From an uncultured Rhizobiaceae bacterium (GTDB taxonomy: Bacteria; Pseudomonadota; Alphaproteobacteria; Rhizobiales; Rhizobiaceae), in the NCBI GenBank assembly GCA_964383325.1, contig CAYLGY010000001.1, forward strand, positions 7,230 to 71,229: a DNA stretch of 64,000 nucleotides, read 5' to 3'. This document shows, in pieces, positions 1,787-18,494 of the stretch. The position numbers were made by a program, and so were the translations under genes. The notes under the pieces were generated by a model, which did no database searches, was not told the DNA's origin, and saw nothing but the letters and a program-made list of their open reading frames with translations. Position 1 is the stretch's first letter; each line of letters opens with the position of its first letter.

Positions 1787-2362
1787 GTGCGTGGCGTTGC
1801 CGCAATCGTTCGCGCCATCAGCGTACTGAATGCAGCCATCGGCCAGGTCTTCTCGTGGCTGGCGCTGGCCATGGTGATCGTCTGCTTCACCGTGGTAGTG
1901 CAACGCTACGTGTTCTCGACCAGCCTGATCTGGATGCAGGATCTATATGTCTGGCTGAACGGCGCCATGTTTACGGCCGTTGCCGGCTTTGCCCTGTTGC
2001 GCAACGATCACGTGCGGGTCGATATCTTCTATCGCCCGGCCCGTACGCGCAGCAAGGCGATCGTCGATCTGTTCGGCGTGATCGTGTTTCTCCTTCCCTA
2101 TTGCTGGGTGGTATGGGTGTATGGCTGGCCCTACGTGGTCCGTTCGTGGAAGTATCAGGAAGGATCGGCCAATATTGGCGGCATGCCCGGCCTCTATATC
2201 CTCAAATCGTTCATTATCGCCTTCGCGTTGCTTGTTGCGCTGCAGGGCATTGCCATGGCGTTGCGCTCGATCCTCGTCCTCGCCGGGCAGGAGGATCTGC
2301 TGCCGGACAGATTGCGCTACGCCCGCGACGATCAGCCGGATGACCAGAAGGCGGCGATGTGA
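1787..2362 (+). CDS. TRAP transporter small permease (DctQ-like)
   Basis: 191-aa, 4-TM protein whose stop overlaps the start of the DctM-like gene (2359/2362). Confidence 0.8.
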   Translation: MRGVAAIVRAISVLNAAIGQVFSWLALAMVIVCFTVVVQRYVFSTSLIWMQDLYVWLNGAMFTAVAGFALLRNDHVRVDIFYRPARTRSKAIVDLFGVIVFLLPYCWVVWVYGWPYVVRSWKYQEGSANIGGMPGLYILKSFIIAFALLVALQGIAMALRSILVLAGQEDLLPDRLRYARDDQPDDQKAAM

Positions 2363-3835: not shown

Positions 3836-4933
3836 TCAGATCCGGAAGTACTTCTGCCTCGCCTGAAGGAATGGCAGGTCCGTTCCCTCGGTGCGGCCAC
3901 GCAGCACGTTGAAGGCGGAAATATAGCTTTCCACCATTTCCTTGGTCAGCGCGTCACCATCGGAACGCAGGGTTTCGAGAATCTCGGCAGCAGCCTTGGC
4001 GCCAGCCTCCAGAATCTCCTCCGGGAACTGCAGGAGCTTCACTCCATGGTCATTGACCAAGGTCTGCAATGCCCGCGGATCATTGGCATAATATTCGGAG
4101 GCCATCTGATCGTATTCCGATTGCGCCACGACCTTCACGATCTCCTGCAGGTCGGCCGGCAATTCGTCATACTTGTCCTTGCGCACCACGATCTCGGTCG
4201 CCGCGCCAGCTTCGACAAAGCTGGAGATGTAGTAATTCTTGGTGATCTGATAGTAGCCGAGCGCCAGGTCGTTGTAGGGGCCCACAAATTCGACGGCATC
4301 GAGCGTGCCCGACTGCAGCGCCTGGAAGGTTTCTCCGGCCGCCATGTTGGTGACGCTGGCGCCCAGCTTCTGCCACACCTGACCGCCCAATCCCGGCGTG
4401 CGGAAGCGAAGACCCTGCAGATCTGCAACCCCGGTAAGCTCATTGCGGAACCAGCCACCCGTCTGCGTGCCGGTATCGCCGGAAAGGAAACCGCGGACGC
4501 CGAATTGATCATAGATCTTGTCCCAGATCTCCTGCCCGCCCATATAGCGGATCCAGGTGGACAATTCCCGCGAGTTCATCCCGAACGGCACGCCGGTGAT
4601 GAAATTCAGCCCTTGGCTCTTGTTCTGCCAGTAATAGGGCGTCGAATGACAGATTTCCGCATTTCCGTCGATCACCGCATCCAGCGCCTGCAGCGCCGGG
4701 ACGAGTTCGCCAGCGGAATAGACCTGGATGGTGAGGCGTCCGTCAGATGCGGCGGTGATCTTGTCAGCCAGCCTTTGTGCCCCGACGCCGATTCCCGGAA
4801 AATTCTTGGGCCAGGTGGTCGGCATGCGCCAGGTGATCTTGCCCTGGGCAATTGCCGGCATGGCGAGGCCGGTAGCGCCGGCGGCGCCAACACCGGCCAG
4901 TCCGGCGGTCTTGATGAATGATCTGCGATCCAT
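3836..4933 (-). CDS. TRAP transporter periplasmic solute-binding protein (DctP-type, Tat-like signal)
   Basis: ORF 3836-5020 trimmed to Met-30 (MDRRSFIKTAGLAGVGAAG...AIAQG twin-Arg signal), with a GGGAGGGA RBS upstream. Family 7 SBP-like sequence. Confidence 0.85.
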   Translation of the reverse strand: MDRRSFIKTAGLAGVGAAGATGLAMPAIAQGKITWRMPTTWPKNFPGIGVGAQRLADKITAASDGRLTIQVYSAGELVPALQALDAVIDGNAEICHSTPYYWQNKSQGLNFITGVPFGMNSRELSTWIRYMGGQEIWDKIYDQFGVRGFLSGDTGTQTGGWFRNELTGVADLQGLRFRTPGLGGQVWQKLGASVTNMAAGETFQALQSGTLDAVEFVGPYNDLALGYYQITKNYYISSFVEAGAATEIVVRKDKYDELPADLQEIVKVVAQSEYDQMASEYYANDPRALQTLVNDHGVKLLQFPEEILEAGAKAAAEILETLRSDGDALTKEMVESYISAFNVLRGRTEGTDLPFLQARQKYFRI

Positions 4934-5087
4934 GCTTGTCCCTCCCTTGCGGACCCTGAGCGAATGAGTGATGCGCAACGATAGTGACAAACCCGCGCTG
5001 CCGCAACGTGTTACGCGCAACCGAGTCCCATCCCGTCTTGCTGAAAATTCGTGGGACTGCTTTCCCTGTTGCGCGCGAAAATAAACT

Positions 5088-5417: not shown

Positions 5418-6467
5418 ATGTCGATCGGCGAAAAGCTGACACCTGCCGCGATTCATTCGGCACGCGCCGAAAACCCGAGAATGCGTGAACGCGACCTGGC
5501 TGCGCGGTTGGGAATTTCCGAGGCGGAGCTGGTCGCTGCATTTTGCGGCGACGGCGCAACCCGCATCGAGCCGTCTTACGAGGCCTGCTTTCCCCTGGTG
5601 CAGGAGGTTGGCGAAGTGATGGCGTTGACCCGCAACGAGAGCGCGGTCCACGAGAAGATCGGCGTCTACGAGAAGTATTCGGGCGGCAAGCATGCCGGCA
5701 TTGTGCTTGGGGAGCAGATCGATCTGCGCATGTTCCCGAGGCACTGGAGGCACGCATTTGCGGTCGAGAAGCGCGATGGCGACGATGTGCGGCGCAGCCT
5801 TCAGTTCTTCGATGCCCGTGGCGATGCCGTGCACAAGATTCATGCGCGACCGAAAACCGATCTGAAGGCATGGCAACGGCTCGTCGAGGCGCTCGCAATG
5901 CCGGACCAGTCCAGCGCGATTGAAATCGACGCTTCTCCTGCGGGCCACCACGACGCGCCGGAGGTTCCGGTCGAAGTGCTGCGGGACCGCTGGAGCCGGA
6001 TGACCGACACGCATCAGTTCGCTCTCCTGCTGCGGTCACTGAGATTGCCGCGTCATGCTGCCGTTGCCGCGGTTGGCGAGGATTATGCCTGGCAGATCGA
6101 AAATGCCGCGGTTGTCTCGCTGATGGAGCAGTCTGCCGCAACGGGGCTGCCGATCATGTGTTTCGTCGGCAGTCGCGGCTGCATCCAGATCCATTCGGGG
6201 CCGATCGTCAGTCTGCGCCAGACAGGCCCGTGGATGAATGTCATGGACGAGGATTTCCATCTTCATCTGCGCACGGATCATATTGCGACCACCTGGGCTG
6301 TCCGCAAGCCCACCGAACTGGGACACGTCACTTCAGTGGAAGCCTATGACGCCCGCGGCGAGCTCATCATCCAGTTCTTCGGCAAGCGCATCGAAGGGCA
6401 GGACGAGCGCCCCGCCTGGCGCGGTCTCGTGGAGCGACTGCCGCGACTGCAATCCCACGCAGCTTGA
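5418..6467 (+). CDS. hmuS: Hemin-degrading/transport protein HmuS (ChuS/ShuS/HemS family)
   Basis: 349-aa ORF with the expected size and position in the hmuPSTUV order. Sequence is HemS/ChuS-like. Confidence 0.85.
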   Translation: MSIGEKLTPAAIHSARAENPRMRERDLAARLGISEAELVAAFCGDGATRIEPSYEACFPLVQEVGEVMALTRNESAVHEKIGVYEKYSGGKHAGIVLGEQIDLRMFPRHWRHAFAVEKRDGDDVRRSLQFFDARGDAVHKIHARPKTDLKAWQRLVEALAMPDQSSAIEIDASPAGHHDAPEVPVEVLRDRWSRMTDTHQFALLLRSLRLPRHAAVAAVGEDYAWQIENAAVVSLMEQSAATGLPIMCFVGSRGCIQIHSGPIVSLRQTGPWMNVMDEDFHLHLRTDHIATTWAVRKPTELGHVTSVEAYDARGELIIQFFGKRIEGQDERPAWRGLVERLPRLQSHAA

Positions 6468-6477
6468 CGGGAACGCA

Positions 6478-7371
6478 ATGAACACCATGCTCCGCAAGGC
6501 AATCGCAAATCGCCGCGCCATCTTTCTCGCATTGTTGCTGGGCTGGTCCGGACCACCCCCGGCCCATGCCGATGCCGACCATGCCAGTCGCATTGTCGCC
6601 ATTGGCGGGTCCGTCACGGAGATCGTCTACAGGCTGGGCGAAGAGGATCGGCTCATCGCACGCGATACGACGAGCGATTATCCGGAGGCGGCGATGTCGC
6701 TTCCGGATGTCGGCTACATTCGCGCCCTGTCGCCGGAAGGCGTTCTGTCGGTTGAGCCGGACCTGATCCTGTCGCTCGAAGGCGCCGGTCCGCCCGAAGC
6801 GATTGCCCTGTTGCAGCAGGCTGGCGTGAGGTTCGTCGAAATTCCCGACGGCCATACTGGCGAAGCGATCGTCACGAAGATCCGTGCGGTCGGCTCGGCG
6901 CTCGGAGTTGCGGAAAAGGCAGACCAGCTGGCGCGGGAAGTCGAACAGGAACTGCGTGCAGTGGAGCAACTCTTCGCAGCGCGGACGGACAGGGTACCCA
7001 CCCTGTTCATCCTGGCGGTTCAGGATGGCCGTATCATGGCTGCGGGCGCGGATACGCAGGCCGATGGCATGATTGCGATGGCCGGCGGATTCAATGTCAT
7101 GGGCACAATGTCGGGGTACAGGCAGGTGAGCGATGAGGCCGTCATCGCTGCCGCGCCGGATGCGATCCTGGTCATGCAGCGTGGCGATGAGTTCGGCACG
7201 GAACGAGACCAGTTGCTCGCCCATCCGGCGATTGCCGCGACGCCCGCCGGCAAGGATGGGCGCATTCTCTCCATGGACGGCATGTACCTGCTCGGCTTCG
7301 GACCGCGCACCGCCAGCGCCGTACGGGAATTGCATCGCGGGCTACATCAAGCGCCAGAAGGTGGGCACTGA
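6478..7371 (+). CDS. hmuT: Hemin ABC transporter periplasmic binding protein HmuT
   Basis: ORF 6238-7371 trimmed to MNTMLRKAIANRRAIFLALLLGWSGPPPAHA (signal peptide). Class III (FecB/BtuF-like) SBP sequence. Confidence 0.85.
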   Translation: MNTMLRKAIANRRAIFLALLLGWSGPPPAHADADHASRIVAIGGSVTEIVYRLGEEDRLIARDTTSDYPEAAMSLPDVGYIRALSPEGVLSVEPDLILSLEGAGPPEAIALLQQAGVRFVEIPDGHTGEAIVTKIRAVGSALGVAEKADQLAREVEQELRAVEQLFAARTDRVPTLFILAVQDGRIMAAGADTQADGMIAMAGGFNVMGTMSGYRQVSDEAVIAAAPDAILVMQRGDEFGTERDQLLAHPAIAATPAGKDGRILSMDGMYLLGFGPRTASAVRELHRGLHQAPEGGH

Positions 7372-7417
7372 ATTGGCGATACGGTTCCACTGTGCCGCGA
7401 GCCTTCCGCGGCCGGGC

Positions 7418-8464
7418 ATGGAAGAAGCGGGCGACCGCAGCGCGCGCGCGCGGCGAGTACTCTTCGTGCTGCTGGCCGCATTGGTGATTGCCGGGCTGAC
7501 CTCGCTGACCTGGGGCGCCTCGGATATATCGGTAGTCGACGTGCTCGCGTATGGGTTCGGTGCAGGCGAGGGCCAATTGCCCGAGCGCAGCCGCGTCATC
7601 CTCGAGCAGATTCGCATGCCGCGAGTCGTCATGGGCATGTTGATCGGGGCCTCGCTGGCGGTTTCCGGATCAATCATGCAGGGCCTGTTTCGCAATCCGC
7701 TTGCCGATCCCGGCATTGTCGGCGTCTCGGCCGGCGCCGCTCTCGGAGCGGTGCTGGTCATCGTGCTCGGCGGGGGGCTGACGGCTACGCTTCCTGGTGG
7801 GCAGTTCCTGTTGCCAGGCGCGGCGTTTCTCAGTGGTCTGGCCATGACTCTTGTGCTGTATCGCATAGCCACACGGGCAGGACAGACCTCCGTCGCAACC
7901 ATGCTGCTCGCGGGGATCGCACTCGGCGCATTTGCCAATGCCGCGACGGGCCTGCTGATTTTCCTCGCCAATGACCAGCAATTGCGGGACCTGACCTTCT
8001 GGGGCCTCGGCTCGCTGGCGGGCGCGAGCTGGCTGAAGATCCAGGCTGCAGGACCGGTCATGCTCGCCGCGCTCGCCGTCGCCATGATGCTGGCGAGGCC
8101 GCTCAACGCTCTGGCCCTGGGCGAGTCGTCCGCTATCCATCTCGGCATTTCCGTGCAGCGTGTGAAGAATGTGTGTGTTCTGCTGGTAGCGGCGGGCACC
8201 GGCGCGGCGGTGGCCGTCTCCGGCGGCATCGGCTTTGTCGGCATCGTGGTGCCGCACCTGCTCCGTCTGGCGATCGGCCCCGATCATCGCTACCTCCTGC
8301 CCGCTTCTGCCCTGCTGGGCGCGATCTTCCTCGTCTTTTCCGACGCCGTCAGCCGAACCATCGTGGCGCCGGCGGAACTGCCGATCGGAATCGTGACGGC
8401 GGCGGTGGGCGCACCCTTCTTCCTGTTCATCCTCCTGCGGCGGCGTGGCCTGTTCGATGTGTGA
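7418..8464 (+). CDS. hmuU: Hemin ABC transporter permease HmuU (FecCD family)
   Basis: ORF 7133-8464 trimmed to Met-96 (MEEAGDRS...). FecCD-type polytopic sequence. Confidence 0.85.
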   Translation: MEEAGDRSARARRVLFVLLAALVIAGLTSLTWGASDISVVDVLAYGFGAGEGQLPERSRVILEQIRMPRVVMGMLIGASLAVSGSIMQGLFRNPLADPGIVGVSAGAALGAVLVIVLGGGLTATLPGGQFLLPGAAFLSGLAMTLVLYRIATRAGQTSVATMLLAGIALGAFANAATGLLIFLANDQQLRDLTFWGLGSLAGASWLKIQAAGPVMLAALAVAMMLARPLNALALGESSAIHLGISVQRVKNVCVLLVAAGTGAAVAVSGGIGFVGIVVPHLLRLAIGPDHRYLLPASALLGAIFLVFSDAVSRTIVAPAELPIGIVTAAVGAPFFLFILLRRRGLFDV

Positions 8465-9251
8465 CACGGCAATCGAAGCCTGCAGGCTCGAGGTAAGCCT
8501 CGCTGGTCGCCCGGTCGTGCACAGGACAGATCTTGTGGCACATGCCGGAGAAGTCACGATGATCGCCGGACCGAATGGCTCCGGAAAGACGACGCTGTTG
8601 CGCGCGCTCACCGGCGAGATTGCCTATTCGGGTAGTATCCGCCTCGCTGGAAGGGAAATTTCTACTCTGGCCCCCGCGCAGCTCGCGCGCCGACGCGCTG
8701 TTCTGGCGCAGGAAAACCGGATCGCCTTTCCCTTCACGGTTGGAGAAATCGTCCGGCTCGGGATCACCGAACCCGGCAGAAGCGACTACCGGGGCGCAAC
8801 ACGCCTACGCGAAGCCCTCGCGCTCGTCGGGTTGGACGGCTTTGCCGGCCGCTTCTACCATGAGCTGTCGGGCGGCGAACGCCAACGGGTCCAGCTTGCG
8901 CGCGTCCTCTGTCAGATCTGGGAGCCAGTTGCCGAGGGTGTGGCGAGATGGCTATTCCTCGACGAGCCGGTTGCGAGCCTGGATATCCGGCATCAGCTTT
9001 CGACGATGGAACTGGCGCGCGCCTATGCGCGGCGCGGGGGCGGCGTTGTGGCGGTGATGCACGATCTCAATCTTGCCGCCATGTATGGTGACCGCATTCA
9101 TTTCATGAAGGCCGGCCGGATCATCGCGGGTGGCCGTCCGGAAACGGTCCTGCGCGACGATCTCCTGAGTGAGATCTTCGGTTGTTCGCTCGCGGTAGGC
9201 CGGATTCCGGCGGACGGAATTTTCGTCTTGCCGCAATCGCACAACTCTTGA
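8445..9251 (+). CDS. hmuV: Hemin ABC transporter ATP-binding protein HmuV
   Basis: Walker A GPNGSGKTT, signature LSGGERQR and Walker B LFLDEP. Start is GTG 8445 or ATG 8457; either overlaps the end of hmuU. Confidence 0.85.
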   Translation: MACSMCDTAIEACRLEVSLAGRPVVHRTDLVAHAGEVTMIAGPNGSGKTTLLRALTGEIAYSGSIRLAGREISTLAPAQLARRRAVLAQENRIAFPFTVGEIVRLGITEPGRSDYRGATRLREALALVGLDGFAGRFYHELSGGERQRVQLARVLCQIWEPVAEGVARWLFLDEPVASLDIRHQLSTMELARAYARRGGGVVAVMHDLNLAAMYGDRIHFMKAGRIIAGGRPETVLRDDLLSEIFGCSLAVGRIPADGIFVLPQSHNS

Positions 9252-9304
9252 CCACAGCCCTCAATACTGATAGATGAAACATCATTCAGCCTGTCGACAC
9301 CGAT

Positions 9305-9613
9305 GTGCCCACAGGGCATTGTGGATCTGGAACATTGATAACTGCCCAGCAATTGCGCGCCGCAAGGGCGCTGCTCGGCATTGACCAGCGCAAGCTTGCC
9401 GAGCTGTCGGGACTATCCGTTCCGACCATCCAGCGCATGGAAGCGAGCGAAGCCGTCATTCGCGGCAATGTCGATTCGCTCGTCAAGCTCGTTTCCGCGC
9501 TCGAAGCCTCCGGCATCGAGCTGATCGGCGAGGGCGCGGCAAGCCTTGACGGCGGGCGCGGCATCCGGCTCCGGACACCGACGGGCCCAAAGGTGGAGAG
9601 GACCCCCGAGTGA
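9305..9613 (+). CDS. Small XRE-family helix-turn-helix protein
   Basis: ITAQQLRAARALLGIDQRKLAELSGLSVPTIQRME is a classic HTH_XRE segment. GTG start at 9305 (a TTG near 9335 is also possible). Stop overlaps the next gene's GTG start. Confidence 0.6.
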   Translation: MPTGHCGSGTLITAQQLRAARALLGIDQRKLAELSGLSVPTIQRMEASEAVIRGNVDSLVKLVSALEASGIELIGEGAASLDGGRGIRLRTPTGPKVERTPE

Positions 9614-11619
9614 ACGCGGGCGCGATCCTGTGGTGCATTGCCGGCCAGCTGGTGCTGTGCGTACCTGCCATGGTCCTCCCGTCTCCGCGCGCCAGCCGCC
9701 TCATCTACGGCGCCAGCCTGTTCCTGTCGGGACTGGTCCTTGCGATCGCGGCGGGCTGGCTTGTTGCTATTGGCGGGAGCTCGGAAATCGAATTGCCTCT
9801 GGGCCTGCCCTGGATCGGCGTCCATTTCGTCCTGGACCCGCTTTCGGCCTATTTCCTTCTCATCGCCAATCTGGGCGGCGCGCTCGCCGGTCTCTACGGT
9901 ATCGGCTACGGCATGCACGAGAAGGAACCTCGCCGTGTGCTGCCCTTCTTTCCTGTGTTTCTCGCGGCCATGAACCTCGTACTCCTGGCCGGAGACGGCT
10001 TCACCTTTCTGCTGTCCTGGGAGTTCATGTCATTGTCGTCCTGGGCGCTGGTCATGGCGAACCATCGTGCGGAAGGCAATGCGCGTGCCGGCTATGTCTA
10101 TCTCGTAATGGCAGGGTTCGGCACCATGGCGCTACTGCTCGCCCTCGGCCTGCTGGCGGGTCCGGCAGGAGGCTACACTTTCGCTGCCATGCGCGAGGCG
10201 TCGACCACCCCGCTTCTCACTGCCGCGGTGTTCGGCCTTGTCCTGATCGGGGCTGGATCGAAGGCAGGGATGGTGCCCCTGCACGTCTGGCTGCCGCTGG
10301 CCCATCCGGCAGCACCCAGTCATGTCTCTGCCCTGATGAGCGGGGTCATGACAAAGGTGGCGATCTATGCGGTCATCCGCATCCTGTTCGATCTGCTCGA
10401 CGATCCATTCTGGTGGTCTGCCATCGTGCTGATGTCCTTCGGTGGTCTCACCGCACTCCTCGGAATCCTCCATGCGCTGCGTGAGACCGATCTGAAGCGT
10501 CTCCTCGCATGCAGCACGATCGAGAATATCGGCGTCATTCTCATCAGCCTCGGTCTCGCCCTCGCATTCGAATCCCAGCACATGGGCCTGGCCTCGGCAA
10601 TGGCCATGGCTGCGGCGCTGTTCCACGTTTTCAATCACAGCCTGTTCAAGAGCTTGCTGTTTTTTGGTGCCGGCGCCGTGCTGAACGCGACGGGTCATCG
10701 CGACATGGAGCGGCTCGGGGGCCTCATTCACAGAATGCCGGTGACCAGCGTGGTCTTTCTCGTCGGTTGCGTGTCGATTTCGGCATTGCCTCCATTCAAC
10801 GGCTTTGTCTCGGAATGGCTCGCCTTCCAGTCCGTCCTGCAAAGTCCCGAGCTGACGCATTGGGGCCTCAAGATGATCATCCCCGCCATGGGCGGGGTGC
10901 TGGCAATGGCCGCGGCGCTGGCGGCAGTGGTATTCGTAAAGGCATACGGCATCGTCTTTCTTGGTCGGCCGCGCAGCGATGCGGCCGGGAACGCGCATGA
11001 GGTCGACCGGTTCTCGCTGACTGCAATGGGGATCCTTGCCGGCCTTTGCTTGCTGGCCGGGCTCCTGCCCGGTCTGGTGCTTGACGGCATGCTTGCCCCG
11101 GTGACGCTGCATCTCCTTGGCGAGCGCTTGCCCGGGCAGGCCGCAAACGCTTGGCTGACGCTCGCGCCGGTCGGCGACAGTCACAGCTCCTACAGCGGCC
11201 TGCTGGTCTTTCTCTTCATCGCCATCTCCGCCATGCTCGCTGTCCTGCTGGCGCACCGCCATGGCTCGCGGGCCGTCAGGCTTGGTCCGGCATGGGATTG
11301 CGGTTATCCGGAAATCACCCCGGCGAGTCAGTATACCGCAACAAGCTTCGCCCAACCCCTGATACGCGTGTTCGGGCCTTACGCATTTGGCACCAGGGCA
11401 GAGCTGGACATGCCGCGCCCCGGGGAAGTCCGCCCGGCGCGCTACCGGGTCGAGTCCCATGATCTTGCATGGGAATGGCTGTACGTGCCGCTCGCGCGCG
11501 CAATCGATTTCATCGCCGGCAAACTCAACCAGTTCCAGTTCCTTACGATCCGCCGCTATCTGGGCCTGGTATTTGCCTCCCTCGTTACGCTTCTTCTGGT
11601 GCTGGCGCTATGGGGCTGA
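9610..11619 (+). CDS. Hydrogenase-4 subunit B-like / NuoL-type antiporter-like subunit
   Basis: 669-aa polytopic protein with NuoL/HyfB-like sequence (e.g. WLPLAHPAAPSHVSALMSG). First gene of the six-gene operon. Confidence 0.85.
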   Translation: MNAGAILWCIAGQLVLCVPAMVLPSPRASRLIYGASLFLSGLVLAIAAGWLVAIGGSSEIELPLGLPWIGVHFVLDPLSAYFLLIANLGGALAGLYGIGYGMHEKEPRRVLPFFPVFLAAMNLVLLAGDGFTFLLSWEFMSLSSWALVMANHRAEGNARAGYVYLVMAGFGTMALLLALGLLAGPAGGYTFAAMREASTTPLLTAAVFGLVLIGAGSKAGMVPLHVWLPLAHPAAPSHVSALMSGVMTKVAIYAVIRILFDLLDDPFWWSAIVLMSFGGLTALLGILHALRETDLKRLLACSTIENIGVILISLGLALAFESQHMGLASAMAMAAALFHVFNHSLFKSLLFFGAGAVLNATGHRDMERLGGLIHRMPVTSVVFLVGCVSISALPPFNGFVSEWLAFQSVLQSPELTHWGLKMIIPAMGGVLAMAAALAAVVFVKAYGIVFLGRPRSDAAGNAHEVDRFSLTAMGILAGLCLLAGLLPGLVLDGMLAPVTLHLLGERLPGQAANAWLTLAPVGDSHSSYSGLLVFLFIAISAMLAVLLAHRHGSRAVRLGPAWDCGYPEITPASQYTATSFAQPLIRVFGPYAFGTRAELDMPRPGEVRPARYRVESHDLAWEWLYVPLARAIDFIAGKLNQFQFLTIRRYLGLVFASLVTLLLVLALWG

Positions 11620-12566
11620 TGCTCGATCTTGCCATTCAGTGCGCGCAGATGCTGATCGTGCTGCTGCTGGCACCATTGCTCACCGGATATGTGCGCAAGG
11701 TGAAGGCACGGTTGCTGCGCCGGCGCGGGCCTGCCCTGCTGCAGCCCTACCGTGACCTCCTCCGACTGATTCGCAAGGAGGCCGTGGTGGCAGAGAATGC
11801 TTCCTGGCTCTTCCGGGCCACGCCATACATGGTTTTCGCGGCGACCTGGGTCGCGGCTGCGCTTGTGCCCACCTTTGCCTCGGGATTGATCTTCAGTTGG
11901 GCCGCGGATCTGATCGCAATCGTCGCCCTGCTCGCGACCGCCCGCTTCTTCCTGGCGCTGGCAGGCATGGATGTCGGTACCGGGTTCGGGGGGATCGGCT
12001 CCAGCCGCGAGATGATGTTTGCCTCCCTCGCCGAGCCCGCAATGCTGCTGATCGTCTTCAGCCTGGCGCTGCTGGCCGGCGCATCGCAGCTTGCCACGCT
12101 GTCCGGCTTCATGATGTCGCCGGAAGTCGGCCTTCGGGTATCGCTCGGCCTGTCTCTCGTGGCGCTGGTGATGGTTGCGTTGGCCGAGAACGGTCGCATC
12201 CCGATCGACAATCCGGCAACGCATCTTGAACTGACCATGGTCCATGAGGCGATGGTGCTGGAATATTCCGGGCGCCACCTGGCCATGATCGAACTGGCGG
12301 GGCATCTGAGGCTGCTGCTCTATCTGTCGCTGATTGCCTGCCTCTTCGTTCCCTGGGGCATGGCGTCGGCGGGAGCAGGCATTGTGGCGCATCTCGCAGG
12401 CATCATCGCGTTCGTGGCCAAGATCGCCGTAGGTGGAACGCTTCTGGCCGTGCTGGAGACATCGATCGCCAAGATGCGGGTCTTCCGCGTGCCGGATTTC
12501 CTCGGTGTGGCACTGATGCTGGCGCTGCTCAGCGCATTGCTGCTGTTCGTGTCGCGGAGTCTCTAG
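11610..12566 (+). CDS. HyfC/HycD-like (NuoH-like) membrane subunit
   Basis: ORF 11469-12566 trimmed to MGLMLDLAIQ... (ATG overlaps the upstream stop). RRRGPALLQPYRDLLRLIRKE is the NuoH/HycD hallmark region. Confidence 0.85.
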   Translation: MGLMLDLAIQCAQMLIVLLLAPLLTGYVRKVKARLLRRRGPALLQPYRDLLRLIRKEAVVAENASWLFRATPYMVFAATWVAAALVPTFASGLIFSWAADLIAIVALLATARFFLALAGMDVGTGFGGIGSSREMMFASLAEPAMLLIVFSLALLAGASQLATLSGFMMSPEVGLRVSLGLSLVALVMVALAENGRIPIDNPATHLELTMVHEAMVLEYSGRHLAMIELAGHLRLLLYLSLIACLFVPWGMASAGAGIVAHLAGIIAFVAKIAVGGTLLAVLETSIAKMRVFRVPDFLGVALMLALLSALLLFVSRSL

Positions 12567-13229
12567 ATGAACGGCCTCGCATTCGACATCGCCCATATGC
12601 TTGCCGGAAGCCTGGTTCTTGTCAGCCTGCTGATGCTTTACCAGGACCGTCTGCTGGCGCTCATCAACATCTTCGCGCTGCATGCGCTCCTGCTGACGCT
12701 TTCCGTCGCCTGGCAGGCCCAGATCCAGGATGCCGGCCATCTATTTGTCACCGCGGGTGTCACCTTGCTGTTCAAGGTCTTCATCATTCCGCTGGCGCTG
12801 CACAGGCTCGTGCGCCGGCTCGGAATCCACCGCGACATCGAGAATGTGATCGGCGTCGGCCCGACCATGCTGGCGGGGATCGGCCTGGTGGCGCTGTCAC
12901 TTGTGCTGATGCTGGAAGTTACGGAAGGAGCCACGCCGCTTGCGCGCCAGGACCTTGCCTTCGCGCTCTCCATCATCCTGCTCGGCCTCCTGCTGATGGT
13001 CAGTCGCCGCAACGCGGTCGGGCAGGTGGTCGGGTTCATGTCGCTCGAGAATGGGCTCGTCCTGGCCGCTGCTGGCGCGAAGGGCATGCCGTTGGTGGTT
13101 GAGCTTAGCGTTTCCTTCTCGATTCTCGTCGCCTTCATCGTGATCGGAACCTTCCTGCTGCGCATCCGCGAGCGGTTTGATTCCGTCGACGTGACGGCGC
13201 TCGACAAGTTTCGCGGAGAAAGGCGATGA
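12567..13229 (+). CDS. HyfE-like small membrane subunit
   Basis: 220-aa hydrophobic protein in the HyfE position between the HyfC-like and HyfF-like genes. Confidence 0.7.
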   Translation: MNGLAFDIAHMLAGSLVLVSLLMLYQDRLLALINIFALHALLLTLSVAWQAQIQDAGHLFVTAGVTLLFKVFIIPLALHRLVRRLGIHRDIENVIGVGPTMLAGIGLVALSLVLMLEVTEGATPLARQDLAFALSIILLGLLLMVSRRNAVGQVVGFMSLENGLVLAAAGAKGMPLVVELSVSFSILVAFIVIGTFLLRIRERFDSVDVTALDKFRGERR

Positions 13230-14677
13230 GCGGATATGCTCTTGATCCGGTGGTCGCGGTGCTGGTGTTGCCGGCCGTCGCCGCAGGCCTGCTCGCTTTT
13301 CTGTCCGACTATCGCATCGCCGCCGGCGTAAATGTCGTTGCCAGCTTGCTGACACTCTTCGCCGCCACCGCTCTTCTGTTCACGGGACGGCCCGAGCCCG
13401 GCAGGTATCTGCTGGTCGACGACCTCAATATCGTCTTCATCATCCTGAACAGTCTCGTCGGCTTCACGACCAGCGTCTTCAGCGCTTCCTACATCGCACA
13501 TGAACTGCGTACCGGCCGCCTGACCCCGCTGCATCTGCGATTCTATCATGCCATGTACCAGATCATGATGTTCGGCATGAACCTCGCCTTTGTCTCGAAC
13601 AATATCGGCCTGATCTGGGTGGCGGTGGAGCTGGCGACGCTGACGACGGTGGTCATGGTGGGAATCTACCGCACACATGAGGCGCTTGAGGCGGCGTGGA
13701 AATATCTGATTCTCGGCAGTGTCGGGATCGCGCTGGCGCTTTTCGGGACGATCATGGTCTACATGGTCGCCATACCCGTTGTCGGCGAAGGCCCCGAGGC
13801 CATGGTCTGGACTGAGTTGTTGCCGCGCGCGGCGGAGTTCGACCCGGCGCTGCTGAATGTAGCCTTCGTCTTCCTACTGCTCGGCTATGGCACGAAGGTG
13901 GGCCTCGCGCCGCTGCACGCCTGGCTGCCGGATGCGCATGCGGAAGGTCCCACCCCGATTTCGGCGGTGCTGTCCGGATTGCTGCTCAATGTCGCCCTCT
14001 ATGCGGTCCTGAGGTTCAAGATGCTCCTGGCGGCCAATCCCGCCGCGATCGCGCCCGGCCCGTTGATGATCGGCATGGGGCTGGTCTCCCTGCTGTTCGC
14101 GGCCGCGATGCTGTATCGGCGGCGCGACATCAAGCGGCTCTTCGCCTATTCCTCGATCGAGCATATGGGCATCATTGTCTTCGCGTTCGGTATGGGCGGA
14201 CCGCTGGCGAATTTTGCCGGGCTGCTGCACATGGTCATGCACAGCCTGACGAAATCGGCGATCTTCTTCGCAGTCGGGCATGTGGCGCAGGTCAAGGGCA
14301 CGCAGCGGCTCGCCGAGATCGGCGGACTTACTGTCTCGCATCCCGCCCTTGGCTGGGGCCTCGTCGTGGCGGTCGCCGCGATTGCCGGACTGCCGCCAAT
14401 GGGGATCTTCATGAGCGAATTCCTGGTCGTGACATCGACCTTTGCCCGCGCGCCCATTCTGGCCGTCCTGCTCGTCTTCGGCCTGTTGCTGGCAATCGGG
14501 GCATTGATGCTGCGGCTGACCGATATCGCATTTGGCGAGCCTCGCGGCAGCCAGGCGCCGGTCGAAGCGTCCTACCTGCCGATGTATGCCCATCTGTCCC
14601 TGGTGCTGATTGCCGGGATCTACCTGCCCCCGCCTCTGGTGGCCTGGTTCCAGAACGTGGCAAATCTGCTGGGATAG
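13226..14677 (+). CDS. HyfF-like / NuoN-M-type antiporter-like subunit
   Basis: 483-aa polytopic protein with WLPDAHAEGPTPISAVLSG, a proton-pumping-subunit motif. Confidence 0.85.
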   Translation: MSGYALDPVVAVLVLPAVAAGLLAFLSDYRIAAGVNVVASLLTLFAATALLFTGRPEPGRYLLVDDLNIVFIILNSLVGFTTSVFSASYIAHELRTGRLTPLHLRFYHAMYQIMMFGMNLAFVSNNIGLIWVAVELATLTTVVMVGIYRTHEALEAAWKYLILGSVGIALALFGTIMVYMVAIPVVGEGPEAMVWTELLPRAAEFDPALLNVAFVFLLLGYGTKVGLAPLHAWLPDAHAEGPTPISAVLSGLLLNVALYAVLRFKMLLAANPAAIAPGPLMIGMGLVSLLFAAAMLYRRRDIKRLFAYSSIEHMGIIVFAFGMGGPLANFAGLLHMVMHSLTKSAIFFAVGHVAQVKGTQRLAEIGGLTVSHPALGWGLVVAVAAIAGLPPMGIFMSEFLVVTSTFARAPILAVLLVFGLLLAIGALMLRLTDIAFGEPRGSQAPVEASYLPMYAHLSLVLIAGIYLPPPLVAWFQNVANLLG

Positions 14678-14690
14678 GGAAGTTGCGACC

Positions 14691-16205
14691 ATGAGTGTAC
14701 TCGGTGATCTTGTCTCCGCCTCCCTGCTGGTCACGGACCACCGGCCCTGGCCGCGTGCCGTCGTGACCGCCCAGGGCTGGGCGCGCACAGGTGAGCGTCT
14801 TGCCGCAGGAGAAGTGGACCTGCTTGGCCTCTGGGGCGAAGCAAGCTACGTACACATGGCGCTGCGCGAAGGCGCGGAGGCAGCCGTGCTGTCTCTGCCT
14901 TGCCCGGACCGGCGCTTTCCCAGCATCGGTGCGTTGCATCCACCCGCAATCCGCATGGAACGCGCCATCACCGATCTTTGCGGCCACAAGCCTGAAGGCG
15001 CGATCGACGACAGGCCCTGGCTGGATCATGGCAAATGGCCGAGCGCACGGCCGCTCGGCATTACCGAGGCGCGCACGGGCGCCGTCGTGCCTCATGATTA
15101 TGAATTCCTGCGCGCCGAGGGCGACAATCTGCATCAGATCCTGGTGGGACCCGTACATGCCGGCATCATCGAGCCGGGTCATTTCCGCTTCCATTGCAGC
15201 GGGGAGACAATTGTCCGGGTCGAGCAGAGACTGGGTTATACCCACAAGGGGACGGAAGCGCTGATGGCAGGGGCCGGACTGGAACGCGCGGGCCGGCTCG
15301 CGGGCAGGGTTTCGGGAGACAGCACCGTCGCCTATGCTCTCGCTTTCGCTCGCGCAGTCGAAGCGGCCCTCGAACTGGAACCTGCCGATCGTGCGATCTG
15401 GCTGCGCGCCCTGATGGCCGAGCTGGAGCGTCTGGCGAATCATCTCGGCGATATCGGCGCGATCTGCAATGATGCATCCTTTGCAATGATGCATGCCCAT
15501 TGCGGCATCCTGCGCGAGAAGGTGCTGCGCACCGCCGATGTGGCGTTCGGCCATCGCCTGATGCGTGACCGGATCGTGCCGGGCGGTGTGACGGCGGACC
15601 TCACTGATACCGGATTGGCGTCGATCCAGTTGCTGGTGGCAGAAGTACAGCGGGACTTTCCGCCTCTCATCCGTCTGTACGAGAACACGGCCTCCTTGCA
15701 GGACCGGACGGTCGGTACGGGGCGTCTCCGGTCAGGACTGGCGCGGCAATTTGGGGCTGGCGGCTATGTCGGGCGCGCCTCCGGGCGCAATTTCGACACG
15801 CGGCGCGATCTGCCCTATCCGCCCTATGACCAGCTCGCGTTCAAGGTTCCTGTACGGATGGAAGGCGACGTCGATGCGCGCATCTGGGTCCGCATTCTCG
15901 AGGTCGGCCAGACACTGTCATTGATCGAGCAGATCCTCGCGGCGCTGCCGCAGGGCGAGATTGCAAATGCGGTGCCGATGCCGGAGCGGAACCTTGAAGG
16001 CATGGCCCTGGTCGAGGGTTTCAGGGGCGATATCATGGCATGGATCCGGATCCGTTCCGATGGCACAATCGAGCGCTGTCATCTGCGCGATCCCTCCTGG
16101 TTCCAGTGGCCGTTGCTGGAAGTGGCAGTCGAAGGCGACATCATCGCCGACTTCCCGCTTTGCAACAAATCCTTCAACTGTTCCTATTCGGGGCACGATC
16201 TCTGA
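14691..16205 (+). CDS. HycE/HyfG-like NuoC-NuoD fusion 'large subunit' lacking NiFe-binding cysteines
   Basis: ORF 14610-16205 trimmed to MSVLGDL.... VGPVHAGIIEPGHFRF and RLGYTHKG are conserved, but the L1 position reads RVSGDSTVAY, not RxCGxCxxxH. The C-terminus is ...CNKSFNCSYSGHDL*. Confidence 0.85.
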   Translation: MSVLGDLVSASLLVTDHRPWPRAVVTAQGWARTGERLAAGEVDLLGLWGEASYVHMALREGAEAAVLSLPCPDRRFPSIGALHPPAIRMERAITDLCGHKPEGAIDDRPWLDHGKWPSARPLGITEARTGAVVPHDYEFLRAEGDNLHQILVGPVHAGIIEPGHFRFHCSGETIVRVEQRLGYTHKGTEALMAGAGLERAGRLAGRVSGDSTVAYALAFARAVEAALELEPADRAIWLRALMAELERLANHLGDIGAICNDASFAMMHAHCGILREKVLRTADVAFGHRLMRDRIVPGGVTADLTDTGLASIQLLVAEVQRDFPPLIRLYENTASLQDRTVGTGRLRSGLARQFGAGGYVGRASGRNFDTRRDLPYPPYDQLAFKVPVRMEGDVDARIWVRILEVGQTLSLIEQILAALPQGEIANAVPMPERNLEGMALVEGFRGDIMAWIRIRSDGTIERCHLRDPSWFQWPLLEVAVEGDIIADFPLCNKSFNCSYSGHDL

Positions 16206-16212
16206 GGACGCC

Positions 16213-16752
16213 ATGCCATTCAATCCGTTTCGCAACCTCCTGCGCCGCCCGCTGACCGACGATCCGCCGGTGCCCGCTGAGGCGCACGCCCGGCAGCTTG
16301 CCGCGGCCCTTGCGCGCACGGCTCGCCGCAAGCTTGGCCGAAGCCTTGCGATTCGTGCCATCGACGCCGGTTCCTGCAATGGCTGCGAGCTGGAACTCCA
16401 TGCGCTGGGCAACGCCTTCTACAGTCTCGAGCGGTACGGCCTGCACTTCGTTGCCTCGCCGCGCCACGCCGATGTGTTGCTGATAACGGGCCCGGTAACC
16501 CGGAACATGCGTGAAGCGGTGCTTCGGACCCATGATGCTGCGCCGCATCCGAAATGGGTGGTCGCGATCGGCGATTGCGCATTTGATGGCGGCTGTTTTG
16601 CCGGGAGCCCGGCGGTCCTTGACGGCGTTGCCTCGATTCTGCCAGTCGATCTCGTGATCCGGGGTTGTCCGCCTCGTCCGGCGGAAATCCTGCAGGGGCT
16701 GCTTGCCTTGCTGGAGGCCTCGGAGAACCCGCCGGCGCAATCAGCCGGCTGA
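16213..16752 (+). CDS. HycG/HyfI-like (NuoB-like) small subunit, 4 Cys for a [4Fe-4S] cluster retained
   Basis: ORF trimmed to MPFNPFRN.... Motifs DAGSCNGCELE, IGDCAFDGG and RGCPPRP are present. Confidence 0.85.
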   Translation: MPFNPFRNLLRRPLTDDPPVPAEAHARQLAAALARTARRKLGRSLAIRAIDAGSCNGCELELHALGNAFYSLERYGLHFVASPRHADVLLITGPVTRNMREAVLRTHDAAPHPKWVVAIGDCAFDGGCFAGSPAVLDGVASILPVDLVIRGCPPRPAEILQGLLALLEASENPPAQSAG

Positions 16753-16753
16753 T

Positions 16754-16806
16754 CGCGACTTTTCTGTTGCTTGCTAAACTGAAAAGTCACAGTCTTGCAA
16801 GTCGCG
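16754..16806 (+). promoter_or_regulatory. Nested/alternative inverted repeats between the Ehr operon and the next gene
   Basis: CGCGACTT (16754-61) pairs with AAGTCGCG (16799-806). GACTTTTC (16757-64) pairs with GAAAAGTC (16781-88). No T-run follows. Confidence 0.35.
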
Positions 16807-16828
16807 TATCAACAGGAGTAGCCAGGTC

Positions 16829-17344
16829 ATGACCGAGCCGAACAAGCCATCCGGGATCACTCTTGAAATGTTGCGAGGCGCCTACTCCATGCGAGCCGAA
16901 GCCTATGCACAGTTCTTCGACGTGCTGCGCGAGGAGTTCGGTGCCGAGCGAGCTGTCGAATTGATGTCTCGCGCGACCCGCCGCATGGGGCAAGGCATGG
17001 GACGGAAATTCGCCGGGTACGGACCACGGGATCTGGACGGGCTGCGCGACGCATTTCTTGGCGGCATTCCTTGCGCCGCCGACATGTTTGCACCCGAGAT
17101 CCAGCGCAGCGACGAGGAGAGGCTGGAAATCCAGTTTCATCGCTGCCCGCTGAAGGATTACTGGGTCGCGGCGGGACGTTCTGATGAGGATCTCGAACAT
17201 CTGTGCAAGGTGGCAGGCGCCATTGATGACGGGCTTTTCACCGAGGCGGGCTTCACGTTCAAAGGAGAGACCTGGAAGCCGGGACGCAGCGGCTGTTGTC
17301 TGCTGAGGGTCGAGCAGGGCCGGAATGTGGAAGGCAGCGTCTGA
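16829..17344 (+). CDS. ATC-hydrolase-family-like protein (L-2-amino-thiazoline-4-carboxylate hydrolase family, Cys-rich)
   Basis: 171 aa. HRCPLKDYW...HLCKVAGAIDD...GCCLLRV resembles the ATC_hydrolase family signature as I remember it; not verified by search. Confidence 0.55.
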   Translation: MTEPNKPSGITLEMLRGAYSMRAEAYAQFFDVLREEFGAERAVELMSRATRRMGQGMGRKFAGYGPRDLDGLRDAFLGGIPCAADMFAPEIQRSDEERLEIQFHRCPLKDYWVAAGRSDEDLEHLCKVAGAIDDGLFTEAGFTFKGETWKPGRSGCCLLRVEQGRNVEGSV

Positions 17345-17346
17345 CG

Positions 17347-17395
17347 CATGATCCCGGAAAGCTGACCTCCACCGTCCGGAAAAGACCCCTGTGCC
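17347..17395. repeat. REP/RIME-like intergenic element (variant copy)
   Basis: CATGATCCCGGAAAGCTGACC...GTCCGGAAAAGACC shares its CATGATCCCGGAAAG core with the copies at 27551, 27610 and 41703. Confidence 0.5.
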
Positions 17396-17513
17396 AGCAG
17401 GAAATTGGTTCAGGATGCCGATTCGACCAGGCGGTTAGCATATTTTTCTGGTCGGGTCCTTTCCAGTGGAAAACCGTAGCTGGCCAAGGTAATGGTGTGG
17501 CAATATGTTTAGT

Positions 17514-17529
17514 AACTGAACAACTGAAC
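17514..17529 (+). promoter_or_regulatory. Perfect tandem octamer AACTGAAC-AACTGAAC upstream of the 12-gene operon
   Basis: Read directly from the sequence, about 22 nt upstream of ATG 17551, in a locally AT-richer stretch. Confidence 0.3.
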
Positions 17530-17550
17530 AACCAGTCGTGACCCGGAAGG

Positions 17551-18066
17551 ATGCGCGGCACCATGAAGGTCGAAGAAGTCGTTGAGCTGTTCGAACGCGA
17601 GCGCGATGCCATCTGGCTGGAACAGCCTGAAGAGATCCGGATTCTCTCGCGCGGAGAGCATCCGCGAGGCATCGGATCCAGGGGCCAGTATCTGACGCCC
17701 ATCATGTTTGCAGAAGGGGCCGCCCGCAATCTGGCCGATGAAGTGCTGTGGAGCATCATCGGGTTCTGCGACCGTCCGGAGCTGGATTTCGCCACGCTGA
17801 AAGTCATGGCGGCAGAGATGGCAGGGCGCAAGGCAGGATTCTTCGAGCTGTTCGGACTGGAACATGTTTCCAGAATGGTCACGATCTATGCGCGCGCGGT
17901 GGATGGCACTCGCGACAGGGATGAGCTGAAGCGTCTCTCCCTCGCAATGTCGGCCTATGTCAATCGCGTGCATGTCTGGCTCGATGCTGCTTTTCCCTGG
18001 GGTGTGTGCAGCGGTTACATGCGTGCCGGTCATGGCCGGCGCAATGCAGAGGGACGGGAAGAATGA
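17551..18066 (+). CDS. Hypothetical helical protein (possibly related to the cucumopine-synthase C-terminal helical domain)
   Basis: 171-aa ORF with strong GC3 bias. Stop overlaps the next start (ATGA). No motif I can assign with certainty. Alternative start at ATG 17563. Confidence 0.55.
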   Translation: MRGTMKVEEVVELFERERDAIWLEQPEEIRILSRGEHPRGIGSRGQYLTPIMFAEGAARNLADEVLWSIIGFCDRPELDFATLKVMAAEMAGRKAGFFELFGLEHVSRMVTIYARAVDGTRDRDELKRLSLAMSAYVNRVHVWLDAAFPWGVCSGYMRAGHGRRNAEGREE

Positions 18067-18494
18067 AACTCGCGCTTGCCATGGCCGGCCGCGATGTCTG
18101 CCGGATCGAAGTCTGGGCGGACAAGGTGCCGTTGGTGGCGGATGCCTTGCGGCAGTTGCTGCCGGTAACCAGCATCGCCCAGCACGGAAAGATCGTCGGG
18201 GATCTTCTGTATTTCAGCCTGCCCGTGGCATTGCCGTCGCAGAACGCGCTGCCCTTGCAGGACATCTGCCGCTTGCGCCGCCGGCAGACGGGCAGCGCCG
18301 GCGGCTCGGTATGCCTTTATGGCCCGCGTCAGCAGATCTGCGTCTATTATGGCGACGACCTCGCGGACGAGCCATTCGAACTGTCGTATATTGGCGAGAT
18401 CGTGCAGGGTGCAACCGAGATGCAGCTGGCCGCGATGCAATGCTGGACCAGTCCCGGCGAGATCGTCACCCTGCGACTGCACGAAGAACCATGA
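18063..18494 (+). CDS. DUF3830-like / cyclophilin-like fold protein
   Basis: ORF 18006-18494 trimmed to MKLALAMAGRDVCRIEVWADKVPLVADALRQLLP.... The pattern resembles DUF3830 proteins from memory. Translationally coupled to the upstream gene. Confidence 0.55.
   Translation: MKLALAMAGRDVCRIEVWADKVPLVADALRQLLPVTSIAQHGKIVGDLLYFSLPVALPSQNALPLQDICRLRRRQTGSAGGSVCLYGPRQQICVYYGDDLADEPFELSYIGEIVQGATEMQLAAMQCWTSPGEIVTLRLHEEP

Follow-up and report, generated by a model that had tools for sequence, protein, structure and literature searches.

The stretch of DNA analysed here, referred to as the window, comprises 64,000 nucleotides (nt) from an uncultured Rhizobiaceae bacterium (GenBank assembly GCA_964383325.1, contig CAYLGY010000001.1, positions 7,230 to 71,229 of the forward strand). 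On its + strand, between positions 9305 and 16752, seven intact and tightly packed open reading frames (ORFs) encode a regulator and six complex-I-like subunits (Table 1). By the published descriptors and by the named orthologues in our family set, this operon appears to be an orthologue of hyqRBCEFGI of Azorhizobium caulinodans, and we have little doubt that it is a member of the complexes of the Hyq/Ehr type (Ehr stands for energy-converting-hydrogenase-related). As the residues discussed below show, the predicted product is a six-subunit, nickel-free complex in which the ligands of one [4Fe-4S] cluster are conserved and the residues of the proton pathway intact.

All assignments are supported by Pfam and NCBIfam models, with E-values given as 1e-22 to 1e-248. 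Both antiporter-like subunits match Pfam Proton_antipo_M (4e-54 and 8e-51). The NCBIfam models that recognise them are named 'hydrogenase 4 subunit B' (NF005086) for HyqB, which is 37% identical to HyfB of Escherichia coli, and 'subunit F' of hydrogenase 4 (NF005043) for HyqF. In HyqE, the C-terminal half (residues 124-217) weakly matches the entire E. coli NuoK (E=0.016). The hyqB gene starts with GTG, overlapping the stop codon of the hyqR-like gene. An earlier sequence-only reading of the locus had given the same ORF coordinates, junctions and family assignments for the six subunit genes, all of which hold. Its six-gene unit, however, left a conserved seventh gene, the helix-turn-helix (HTH) regulator, outside the start, and the span it proposed for co-transcription (9305-17344) takes in a gene that is not conserved downstream of hyqI. 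This gene (16829-17344, ATC_hydrolase) was considered as an operon member and rejected; we left it out of the unit because it is linked to hyq in none of our 80 family loci, i.e. the 80 best loci from species-representative genomes. A scan of 8400-17600 for sigma-70 promoters and terminators gave signals at background level.

The closest solved relative of HyqG is HycE of E. coli (7z0s_E, 6e-53). When both are aligned residue by residue, RVCGICGFAH of HycE falls on RVSGDSTVAY of HyqG and DPCYSC on NCSYSG, and all four Ni ligands plus the following His are replaced. Not one of the four ligand Cys is found in any of 81 loci; S208, S211, S498 and G501 stand instead. The loss of both Ni motifs claimed in the sequence-only reading is thus confirmed, as the alignment places no Cys pair at either of them. 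The C-terminal extension that it reported missing is indeed absent, but this is not diagnostic, since the nearest Cys-containing relatives likewise end in ...CYSCxDR.

The substituted pocket is itself highly conserved. Each of S208, G209, D210, S211, S498 and G501 is kept in 80-81 of the 81 loci, which gives the pattern Ser208-Gly-Asp210-Ser211 plus Ser498-Tyr-Ser-Gly501, and Cys259, Cys491 and Cys497 are invariant within the Hyq clade. The Glu of the EPGHFR loop is kept. Among 101 full-length proteins taken from the 150 best of the distant representatives, all four Cys are missing in 77, most of which read S-G-D-S ... S-Y-S-G; 11 have all four, and 13 are partial or mixed. HyqG keeps nearly every residue that is conserved in the 11 Cys-containing relatives, with the exception of the four ligand positions and Asp210. 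Seven distant relatives (P0144, P0145, P0152, P0212, P0229, P0243 and P0259) retain the first Ni-ligand Cys alone (C-S-A-G, C-S-S-G or C-A-S-G); judged by these patterns, they may stand midway from true group-4 hydrogenases to the Ehr proteins without Cys.

An AlphaFold2 model of HyqG was built from 32 close homologues (predicted template-modelling score, pTM, 0.77). In a fold search its best match was again HycE (7z0s_E, template-modelling score 0.75), followed by fused NuoCD proteins (0.63-0.73). Because the predicted local distance difference test score is <50 at residues 110-186, 335-365 and 469-504, the segments that form the pocket, the model gives no judgement on pocket geometry or on clustering of the Cys residues.

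The partner of HyqG, HyqI, has the motifs GSCNGCE, GDCAFDGG and GCPP. Its Cys55, Cys58, Cys122 and Cys152 align with the ligands of cluster N2 in E. coli NuoB and are found without exception in 63/63 relatives, as are Glu61 and Pro153-Pro154, in agreement with the four retained Cys noted before. The membrane arm is similarly constrained. Invariant residues are E138, K218, H339, H343, K347 and E402 of HyqB (67/67 relatives), the eight NuoH-type charges R29, D49, E142, R196, D200, E207, E218 and K271 of HyqC (70/70), K70, E161 and E179 of HyqE, which are common to E. coli HyfE, and E135, K224 and E398 of HyqF (76/76), which correspond to the Glu, Lys and Glu of transmembrane helices (TM) 5, 7 and 12. 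NuoH E36 and E216 are replaced in HyqC, and the central TM8 Lys of HyqF is an Asn, as in E. coli HyfF. Apart from these exceptions, the residue set of the complex I/Mrp-type membrane arm is present in the antiporter-like, NuoH-like and NuoK-like subunits.

A complex of this kind, the 'Hyq endo-hydrogenase' encoded by hyqRBCEFGI (AZC_4361-4355), has been described from A. caulinodans in three PLoS One papers (Ng 2009, Ciccolella 2010 and Sprecher 2012; PMC2650096, PMC2930871 and PMC3357923; hereafter the Hyq papers). Both loci share the order R-B-C-E-F-G-I and are devoid of HyfA, HyfD and HyfH; the papers themselves remark on the lack of hyfA and hyfD. The published HyqG is a 504-residue NuoC::NuoD fusion without CxxC motifs and with conserved Cys258, Cys491 and Cys497, for which its authors considered a Ni-Fe site 'uncertain, if not unlikely'. 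HyqG of the window equally has 504 residues, no CxxC, and Cys at ~258/259, 491 and 497. For HyqI the Hyq papers list Cys55, Cys58, '112' and Cys152; Cys55, Cys58 and Cys152 recur in the window, and '112' probably stands for 122. The operons of Rhizobium leguminosarum and Bradyrhizobium, orthologues according to the same papers, encode HyqG proteins that are 63-64% identical to that of the window. Unlike A. caulinodans, the window has no NifA upstream activating sequence (UAS) or sigma-54 promoter upstream of hyqR and no hypA-E, and the genes around the operon, for haem uptake and ABC transport, are unrelated, with the search not extended to nif and hup. The locus is already described in kind and is not an uncharacterised oddity.

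The assignment to the Ehr class made in the sequence-only reading is supported by the Cys-less HyqG together with its NuoB-, NuoH- and antiporter-like partners. Other Ehr complexes, such as Geobacter EhrA-S, Rv0081-Rv0087 of Mycobacterium tuberculosis and hyfBCEFGI of Cupriavidus and Acidithiobacillus, share with Hyq the Cys-less large subunit and the NuoB-like Fe-S subunit as well as NuoH-like, HyfE-like and two antiporter-like subunits, and in M. tuberculosis a regulator is again the first gene. The class is heterogeneous: its distant representatives are only 35-45% identical, and the Hyq clade is set apart by Tyr215, Cys491, Cys497 and its own gene order. In Cupriavidus and Acidithiobacillus the cluster was named hyfBCEFGI and HydDB classified the large subunit as a non-hydrogenase; papers up to 2026 call the function of the class unknown. 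A literature search under the locus tags blr6338-43 and H16_A2196/2200 yielded nothing new on expression or fitness. In the databases, HyqG orthologues carry names such as 'hydrogenase expression protein HypE', 'NADH-quinone oxidoreductase subunit C', 'nickel-dependent hydrogenase large subunit' and 'Ni,Fe-hydrogenase III large subunit'.

HyqG relatives are abundant. At least 8000 were found at E<=1e-10 in a collection of 5.8 billion proteins, 7130 related representatives at E<=1e-3 in a library of 50%-identity representatives, and at least 591 stretches with a relative among the first 600 candidates from species-representative genomes. The hosts of the 80 best loci are Alpha-, Beta- and Gammaproteobacteria and Acidobacteriota. 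Wherever the contig covers the operon, these loci have the gene order of the window, as has plasmid pRL11 of Rhizobium johnstonii 3841. In one locus (L047, 4837-6911) ~2 kb between hyqB and hyqC suggests an insertion inside the operon, and in another (L025, 4137-4508) the NuoB-like match that scores best is found ahead of hyqR instead of after hyqG. The best named relatives (Hypericibacter, Mesorhizobium) are 67-68% identical. Across the family, identities amount to ~80% for HyqF, ~75% for HyqE, ~73% for HyqC, 62-67% for HyqG and 62-71% for HyqI.

The hyqR-like protein is 64-81% identical across phyla, above the values for HyqG. In 53 of 81 family loci a homologue immediately precedes the subunit genes, on their strand; in 10 loci, mostly Bradyrhizobium, it is found downstream of hyqI on the opposite strand (L013, L044, L046, L054, L055, L056, L060, L064, L073 and L074). 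According to a clustering of the flanks of the 80 loci, it is the sole widely recurring neighbour, and no ferredoxin, flavodoxin, dehydrogenase, formate dehydrogenase or maturation gene is conserved there. The small HTH gene belongs to the operon unit. Two further genes recur downstream of hyqI in limited groups and are absent from the window: a gene resembling S-adenosylmethionine-dependent methyltransferases ~600 nt after hyqI in ~20 loci, mostly of the Bradyrhizobium type, and a DUF4365 gene in 5 Rhizobium/Neorhizobium loci (e.g. L001 and L076).

Upstream of hyqR we noticed a palindrome, GATAGATGAAACATC, at 9269-9283 (+), 22 nt before the start codon. The motif GAT(G/A)T-N5-A(C/T)ATC (consensus GATGTTTGAAACATC) precedes the hyqR gene in 32 of 64 family loci, across phyla, compared with 2.6 on average, and 7 at most, in shuffled sequences. 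It usually lies ~65 nt ahead of the hyqR start (examples are L005, L010, L026, L036 and L051). From its recurrence, the palindrome is probably the HyqR operator, or at least a candidate for it. Boxes for NifA, sigma-54 or FNR were also considered as control elements of hyqR and rejected, as none was found ahead of this gene in the window and hardly any in the 53 other loci. The NifA/sigma-54 promoter is a regulatory trait of one species, A. caulinodans, and does not define the family; judged by these upstream regions, the link of hyq to nitrogen fixation does not appear to be general.

A haem-uptake operon ends 53 nt before hyqR, and transcriptional read-through into hyq is possible; this linkage was not seen in other family loci. 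Neither the genes at 16829-18494 nor the following ABC transporter are linked to hyq in other loci.

Table 1. Features of the hyq operon and its surroundings in the window.
Feature	Position	Strand	Evidence or remark
hyqR-like, XRE-family HTH regulator, 102 aa	9305-9613	+	Pfam HTH_3 6e-07; matches hyqR of A. caulinodans
hyqB, HyfB/NuoL-like antiporter-like subunit, 669 aa	9610-11619	+	NCBIfam NF005086, 826 bits vs cutoff 667
hyqC, NuoH/HyfC/HycD-like subunit, 318 aa	11610-12566	+	Pfam NADHdh 6.5e-38; 10-nt overlap with hyqB
hyqE, HyfE-like membrane subunit, 220 aa	12567-13229	+	NCBIfam NF008556 4.9e-22, under its cutoff; zero gap after hyqC
hyqF, HyfF/NuoM-like antiporter-like subunit, 483 aa	13226-14677	+	NCBIfam NF005043, 888 bits vs cutoff 533; 4-nt overlap
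hyqG, NuoC-NuoD/HycE-like fusion without Ni ligands, 504 aa	14691-16205	+	Complex1_49kDa 6.6e-39; 13-nt gap after hyqF
RVSGDSTVAY codons, substituted N-terminal Ni motif of HyqG	15306-15335	+	HycE alignment
PLCNKSFNCSYSGHDL-stop codons, substituted C-terminal Ni motif and clade-specific Cys491/Cys497 of HyqG	16155-16205	+	HycE alignment
hyqI, NuoB/HycG-like [4Fe-4S] subunit, 179 aa	16213-16752	+	Pfam Oxidored_q6 3.2e-32; 7-nt gap after hyqG
NnrS-family protein	218-1504	-	adjoins TRAP transporter genes
TRAP transporter, DctQ	1787-2362	+	
TRAP transporter, DctM	2359-3753	+	
TRAP transporter, DctP	3836-5020	-	
Haem-uptake operon (HemS/ChuX, Peripla_BP_2, FecCD permease, ABC ATPase)	5418-9251	+	53 nt before hyqR
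Three small genes after hyqI: ATC_hydrolase-like, cucumopine-synthase C-terminal domain, faint cyclophilin-like match	16829-18494	+	
Branched-chain-type ABC transporter	18537 onward		after the three small genes

The formate hydrogenlyases of E. coli, hydrogenase-4 (Hyf, FHL-2) and hydrogenase-3 (Hyc, FHL-1; PDB 7Z0S), have subunits homologous to those of the window operon, with identities of 37% (HyfB), 38% (HyfF), 32% (HyfC), 31% (HyfE), 31% (HycE) and 46% (HycG); shared features are the Asn in place of the central Lys that is typical of HyfF, and the Glu of the EPGHFR loop. In contrast to them, the window lacks the Ni ligands, HyfA/HycB, HyfD, HyfH/HycF, HyfJ, HycI and FdhF. With tblastn at E<=0.01 over the whole window there was not a single match to E. 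coli HyfA, HycB, HyfH, HycF, HycH, HycI, HyfJ or HydN, to HypA-E, FhlA, HyfR, FocB or FdhF (HypF was not among the queries), or to NuoA, NuoE, NuoF, NuoG, NuoI, NuoJ or NuoK. The sequence-only reading had found no ferredoxin-like subunit, formate dehydrogenase, hyp or hycI gene, with which these searches agree for the genes that were queried (hypA-E, hycI, hycH, hyfJ). Since the ferredoxin-like subunit, the formate dehydrogenase and the tested maturation genes are missing from the window, the complex is not a formate hydrogenlyase, in line with the sequence-only reading; FdhF, HycB/HyfA and HycF/HyfH were not found in the window and are not conserved in the flanks. It is also reported in the Hyq papers that the host lineages of Hyq are aerobic or microaerophilic, unlike the fermentative hosts of Hyf and Hyc.

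With complex I, Hyq shares the core fold, N2-type cluster ligands and proton-pathway Glu, Lys and His residues (compared over NuoB, NuoCD, NuoH, NuoK and NuoL/M/N). It differs in having two antiporter-like subunits only and no detected homologue of NuoA, NuoE, NuoF, NuoG, NuoI or NuoJ, and its likeness to NuoK is confined to the weak match of the C-terminal half of HyqE. A hydrogenase relative with a changed substrate is the MBS/MBX complex of Pyrococcus, which keeps a NuoI-like subunit, an Mrp module and two of the four Cys. Its Ni ligands are degraded and its energy coupling is kept (6U8Y), and its MbsL (6u8y_L) matches HyqG with 6e-21. Hyq goes further, with none of the four Cys and no NuoI-like subunit.

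Taken together, we read the operon as encoding a Hyq orthologue that would act as a Ni-free, Fe-S-containing redox module coupled to the proton-motive force (pmf), to which we assign a probability of roughly 0.55. In this module, electrons would pass between the HyqI cluster and a substrate in the pocket of HyqG, where HyqG, HyqI and HyqC meet; hydrogenases have their Ni-Fe site in this place, and complex I has its quinone head group there. The redox reaction would be reversibly coupled to proton movement through HyqC-HyqE-HyqF-HyqB, and the membrane-side partner would most likely be the ubiquinone pool. To our knowledge, a two-cluster subunit of the NuoI/HycF type that feeds the NuoB cluster is common to all relatives characterised so far (complex I, NDH-1, Ech, Mbh, Mbs and FHL). 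Its lack in Hyq should leave one side of HyqI open to a dissociable partner. For the cytoplasmic couple, the single best guess would be H2 <-> 2H+ + 2e- at a Hyp-independent centre that is not a Ni-Fe site; from the genetics of A. caulinodans, H2/H+ might be the direct couple, a possibility that we hold only tentatively. That a soluble low-potential carrier (ferredoxin or flavodoxin) is the couple and that the effects on H2 are indirect appears somewhat less probable. Smaller shares go to a redox-dead antiporter and to a canonical hydrogenase, and what is left falls to a substrate of yet another kind.

Experiments on the orthologue come from A. caulinodans. According to the Hyq papers (PMC2650096, PMC2930871, PMC3357923), the operon is NifA-dependent and its in-frame deletion slows growth under N2 fixation only; acetylene reduction falls from 31-33 to 25. 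In nodules, H2 evolution reaches 27 umol H2 per g per h in the delta-hupSL delta-hyq double mutant versus ~0.3 in each single mutant, and Hup-independent H2 recycling is abolished by the hyq deletions. Such recycling is said to persist after deletion of the whole 20-gene hup/hyp cluster. At <1 uM O2, ~80% of a very large H2 evolution by the delta-hupSL strain requires hyq, also when nifK is mutated. Growth on exogenous H2 is unaffected in hyq mutants and lost in hup mutants. The sequence-only reading overlooked this literature: its Ehr type, its rejection of a formate hydrogenlyase and the lost Ni ligands stand, but its statement that there is 'no experimentally defined substrate' does not, as hyq-dependent H2 uptake and evolution have been reported (same papers). 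H2 turnover that depends on these genes, which it had named as a refutation of its interpretation, is reported in A. caulinodans and contradicted for Bradyrhizobium diazoefficiens USDA110. A single laboratory provided all of the A. caulinodans evidence on H2, exclusively from in vivo work and with key controls given as 'data not presented'; no enzyme was purified, and the H2 claim is biochemically unproven.

Several observations weigh against the redox module as we describe it. We know of no chemistry that splits H2 at a site made of Ser, Asp and Cys. For no Hyq or Ehr complex is there a purified enzyme, a metal analysis or a structure, and the relatives of HyqG in the PDB are limited to HycE, MbhL, MbsL and complex I. 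Nor does HyqG keep the residues that bind quinone in complex I: His224 (in the beta1-beta2 loop) and Tyr273 of E. coli NuoCD correspond to its Ile160 and Gly209, both invariant. The pocket thus fits neither a Ni-Fe site nor the canonical quinone site. ORF clustering within 6 kb of the operon in the 80 loci gave no conserved redox partner. Neither a NifA UAS (TGT-N10-ACA) nor a sigma-54 -24/-12 element is present at 8701-9340 of the window, and both are absent upstream of hyqR in almost all of the other 53 loci. Moreover, the field regards Cys-less Ehr proteins as non-hydrogenases, and delta-hupS1L1 nodules of USDA110, which is listed as a hyq carrier (blr6338-6344), evolve 6.4 umol H2 per g per h.

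The first rival explanation is the one proposed by Ludwig and co-workers, a true hydrogenase of a new type. As a Hyp-independent and Ni-free H2:ubiquinone oxidoreductase it would pump protons on H2 oxidation and spend pmf to make H2 at very low O2, and the remodelled pocket together with Cys259/491/497 would make up a new catalytic centre. The roughly 90-fold differences in nodule H2 evolution between the A. caulinodans in-frame deletions argue for it, as do the hyq-dependent microaerobic H2 evolution in the nifK background and the recycling that outlasts the loss of the whole hup/hyp cluster, and so does the invariance of the HyqG pocket and of three nearby Cys in the clade. Against this stand the single-laboratory, in vivo nature of these data with their key controls not presented, the H2 evolved by USDA110 delta-hupS1L1 despite hyq, the growth on exogenous H2 that depends on hup and not on hyq, and the occurrence of the operon in many lineages outside NifA control. 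Furthermore, the wider Ehr family does not conserve Cys491 and Cys497, which leaves no metal site common to it. The main structural objection to the published Hyq model comes from the large subunit itself. The Ni-Fe site of hydrogenases and the quinone head group of complex I occupy the same position in it, and an enzyme with a single cluster that joins H2 to quinone is therefore left without an obvious second site. All in all, we consider this proposal possible but hardly probable. Its boldest version, in which Hyq is a fourth kind of hydrogenase, namely a Hyp-independent, Ni-free, O2-compatible and proton-pumping H2:quinone oxidoreductase whose centre is formed by the SGDS/SYSG pocket and Cys259/491/497 beside the [4Fe-4S] cluster, seems unlikely.

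Alternatively, the complex may be a ferredoxin- or flavodoxin:quinone oxidoreductase, where the carrier docks on the exposed HyqI and quinone is reduced in the Ser/Asp/Tyr pocket with proton pumping; in reverse, pmf and quinol would yield a low-potential reductant, for instance for nitrogenase, and the H2 phenotypes would be indirect. This picture is in line with the single cluster, with the lack of a ferredoxin-like subunit in the window or flanks, with the USDA110 result and with the delta-hyq phenotype, which is limited to slower diazotrophic growth and a lowered acetylene reduction (31-33 to 25). The polar pocket, lined by Ser, Asp and Tyr, is chemically more like a quinone site than a gas-activating site. 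However, the full H2 recycling of delta-hupSL as opposed to its loss in the double mutant would remain unexplained, no ferredoxin or flavodoxin gene is linked in the 80 loci, and the quinone ligands of complex I are absent. We regard this alternative as doubtful, if worth keeping in mind.

It is rather improbable that the operon encodes a redox-dead relic arm, i.e. an Mrp-like cation/proton antiporter or a device for pH or ion homeostasis with a structural or sensory Fe-S cluster. The better conservation of the membrane subunits HyqF, HyqE and HyqC compared with HyqG and HyqI would fit such a device, and so would the transport residues kept in both antiporter-like subunits. Yet the four Cys of HyqI are invariant in all 63 relatives, HyqG retains nearly all residues conserved in hydrogenases, and its pocket is invariant over 81 loci and recognisable even in distant Ehr proteins; so strong a constraint on the pocket would not be expected of a dead relic. 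Nor does a phenotype specific to diazotrophy, as in the A. caulinodans orthologue, fit this reading. Finally, a canonical group-4 [NiFe] hydrogenase or formate hydrogenlyase of the Hyf/Hyc type, as implied by the automatic names, by the NCBIfam equivalog models for HyfB and HyfF that exceed their cutoffs and by HycE as the best PDB match, is refuted at the sequence level and retains a negligible chance, given that the four Ni ligands are replaced in 81/81 loci and that HyfA/HycB, HyfH/HycF, FdhF, HypA-E and HycI are neither found in the window nor conserved in the flanks.

The window locus introduces no new principle, and the Hyq/Ehr question is no more testable from it than from the published model organism. 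It is a clean example of a hyq operon that is not regulated with nif, and its comparison with the family yields testable residues. What our analysis adds is a distribution far beyond diazotrophs, a lack of NifA control in species other than A. caulinodans, the strict conservation of the Fe-S ligands, pocket and proton-pathway residues, the candidate HyqR operator, and the NuoI-less architecture as an argument on the electron path.

The hyq operon is very common, with thousands of matching metagenomic proteins, and its products are routinely named 'hydrogenase 4', 'NADH-quinone oxidoreductase subunit C' or 'HypE'. Metabolic reconstructions thereby count H2 or NADH metabolism without basis, and it is likely that this systematic mis-annotation distorts them. 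At the same time, two literatures that rarely cite each other are at odds, the Hyq papers describing a bidirectional hydrogenase and the Ehr/HydDB work a protein that is not a hydrogenase. Once settled, the reaction would either extend the hydrogenases by a further class or reveal a minimal input module that is new among proton pumps of the complex I type. The soil and wastewater species with the operon number several hundred or more, and if the Ni-free hydrogenase proved to be true, it would be a large, unrecognised aerobic sink or source of H2.

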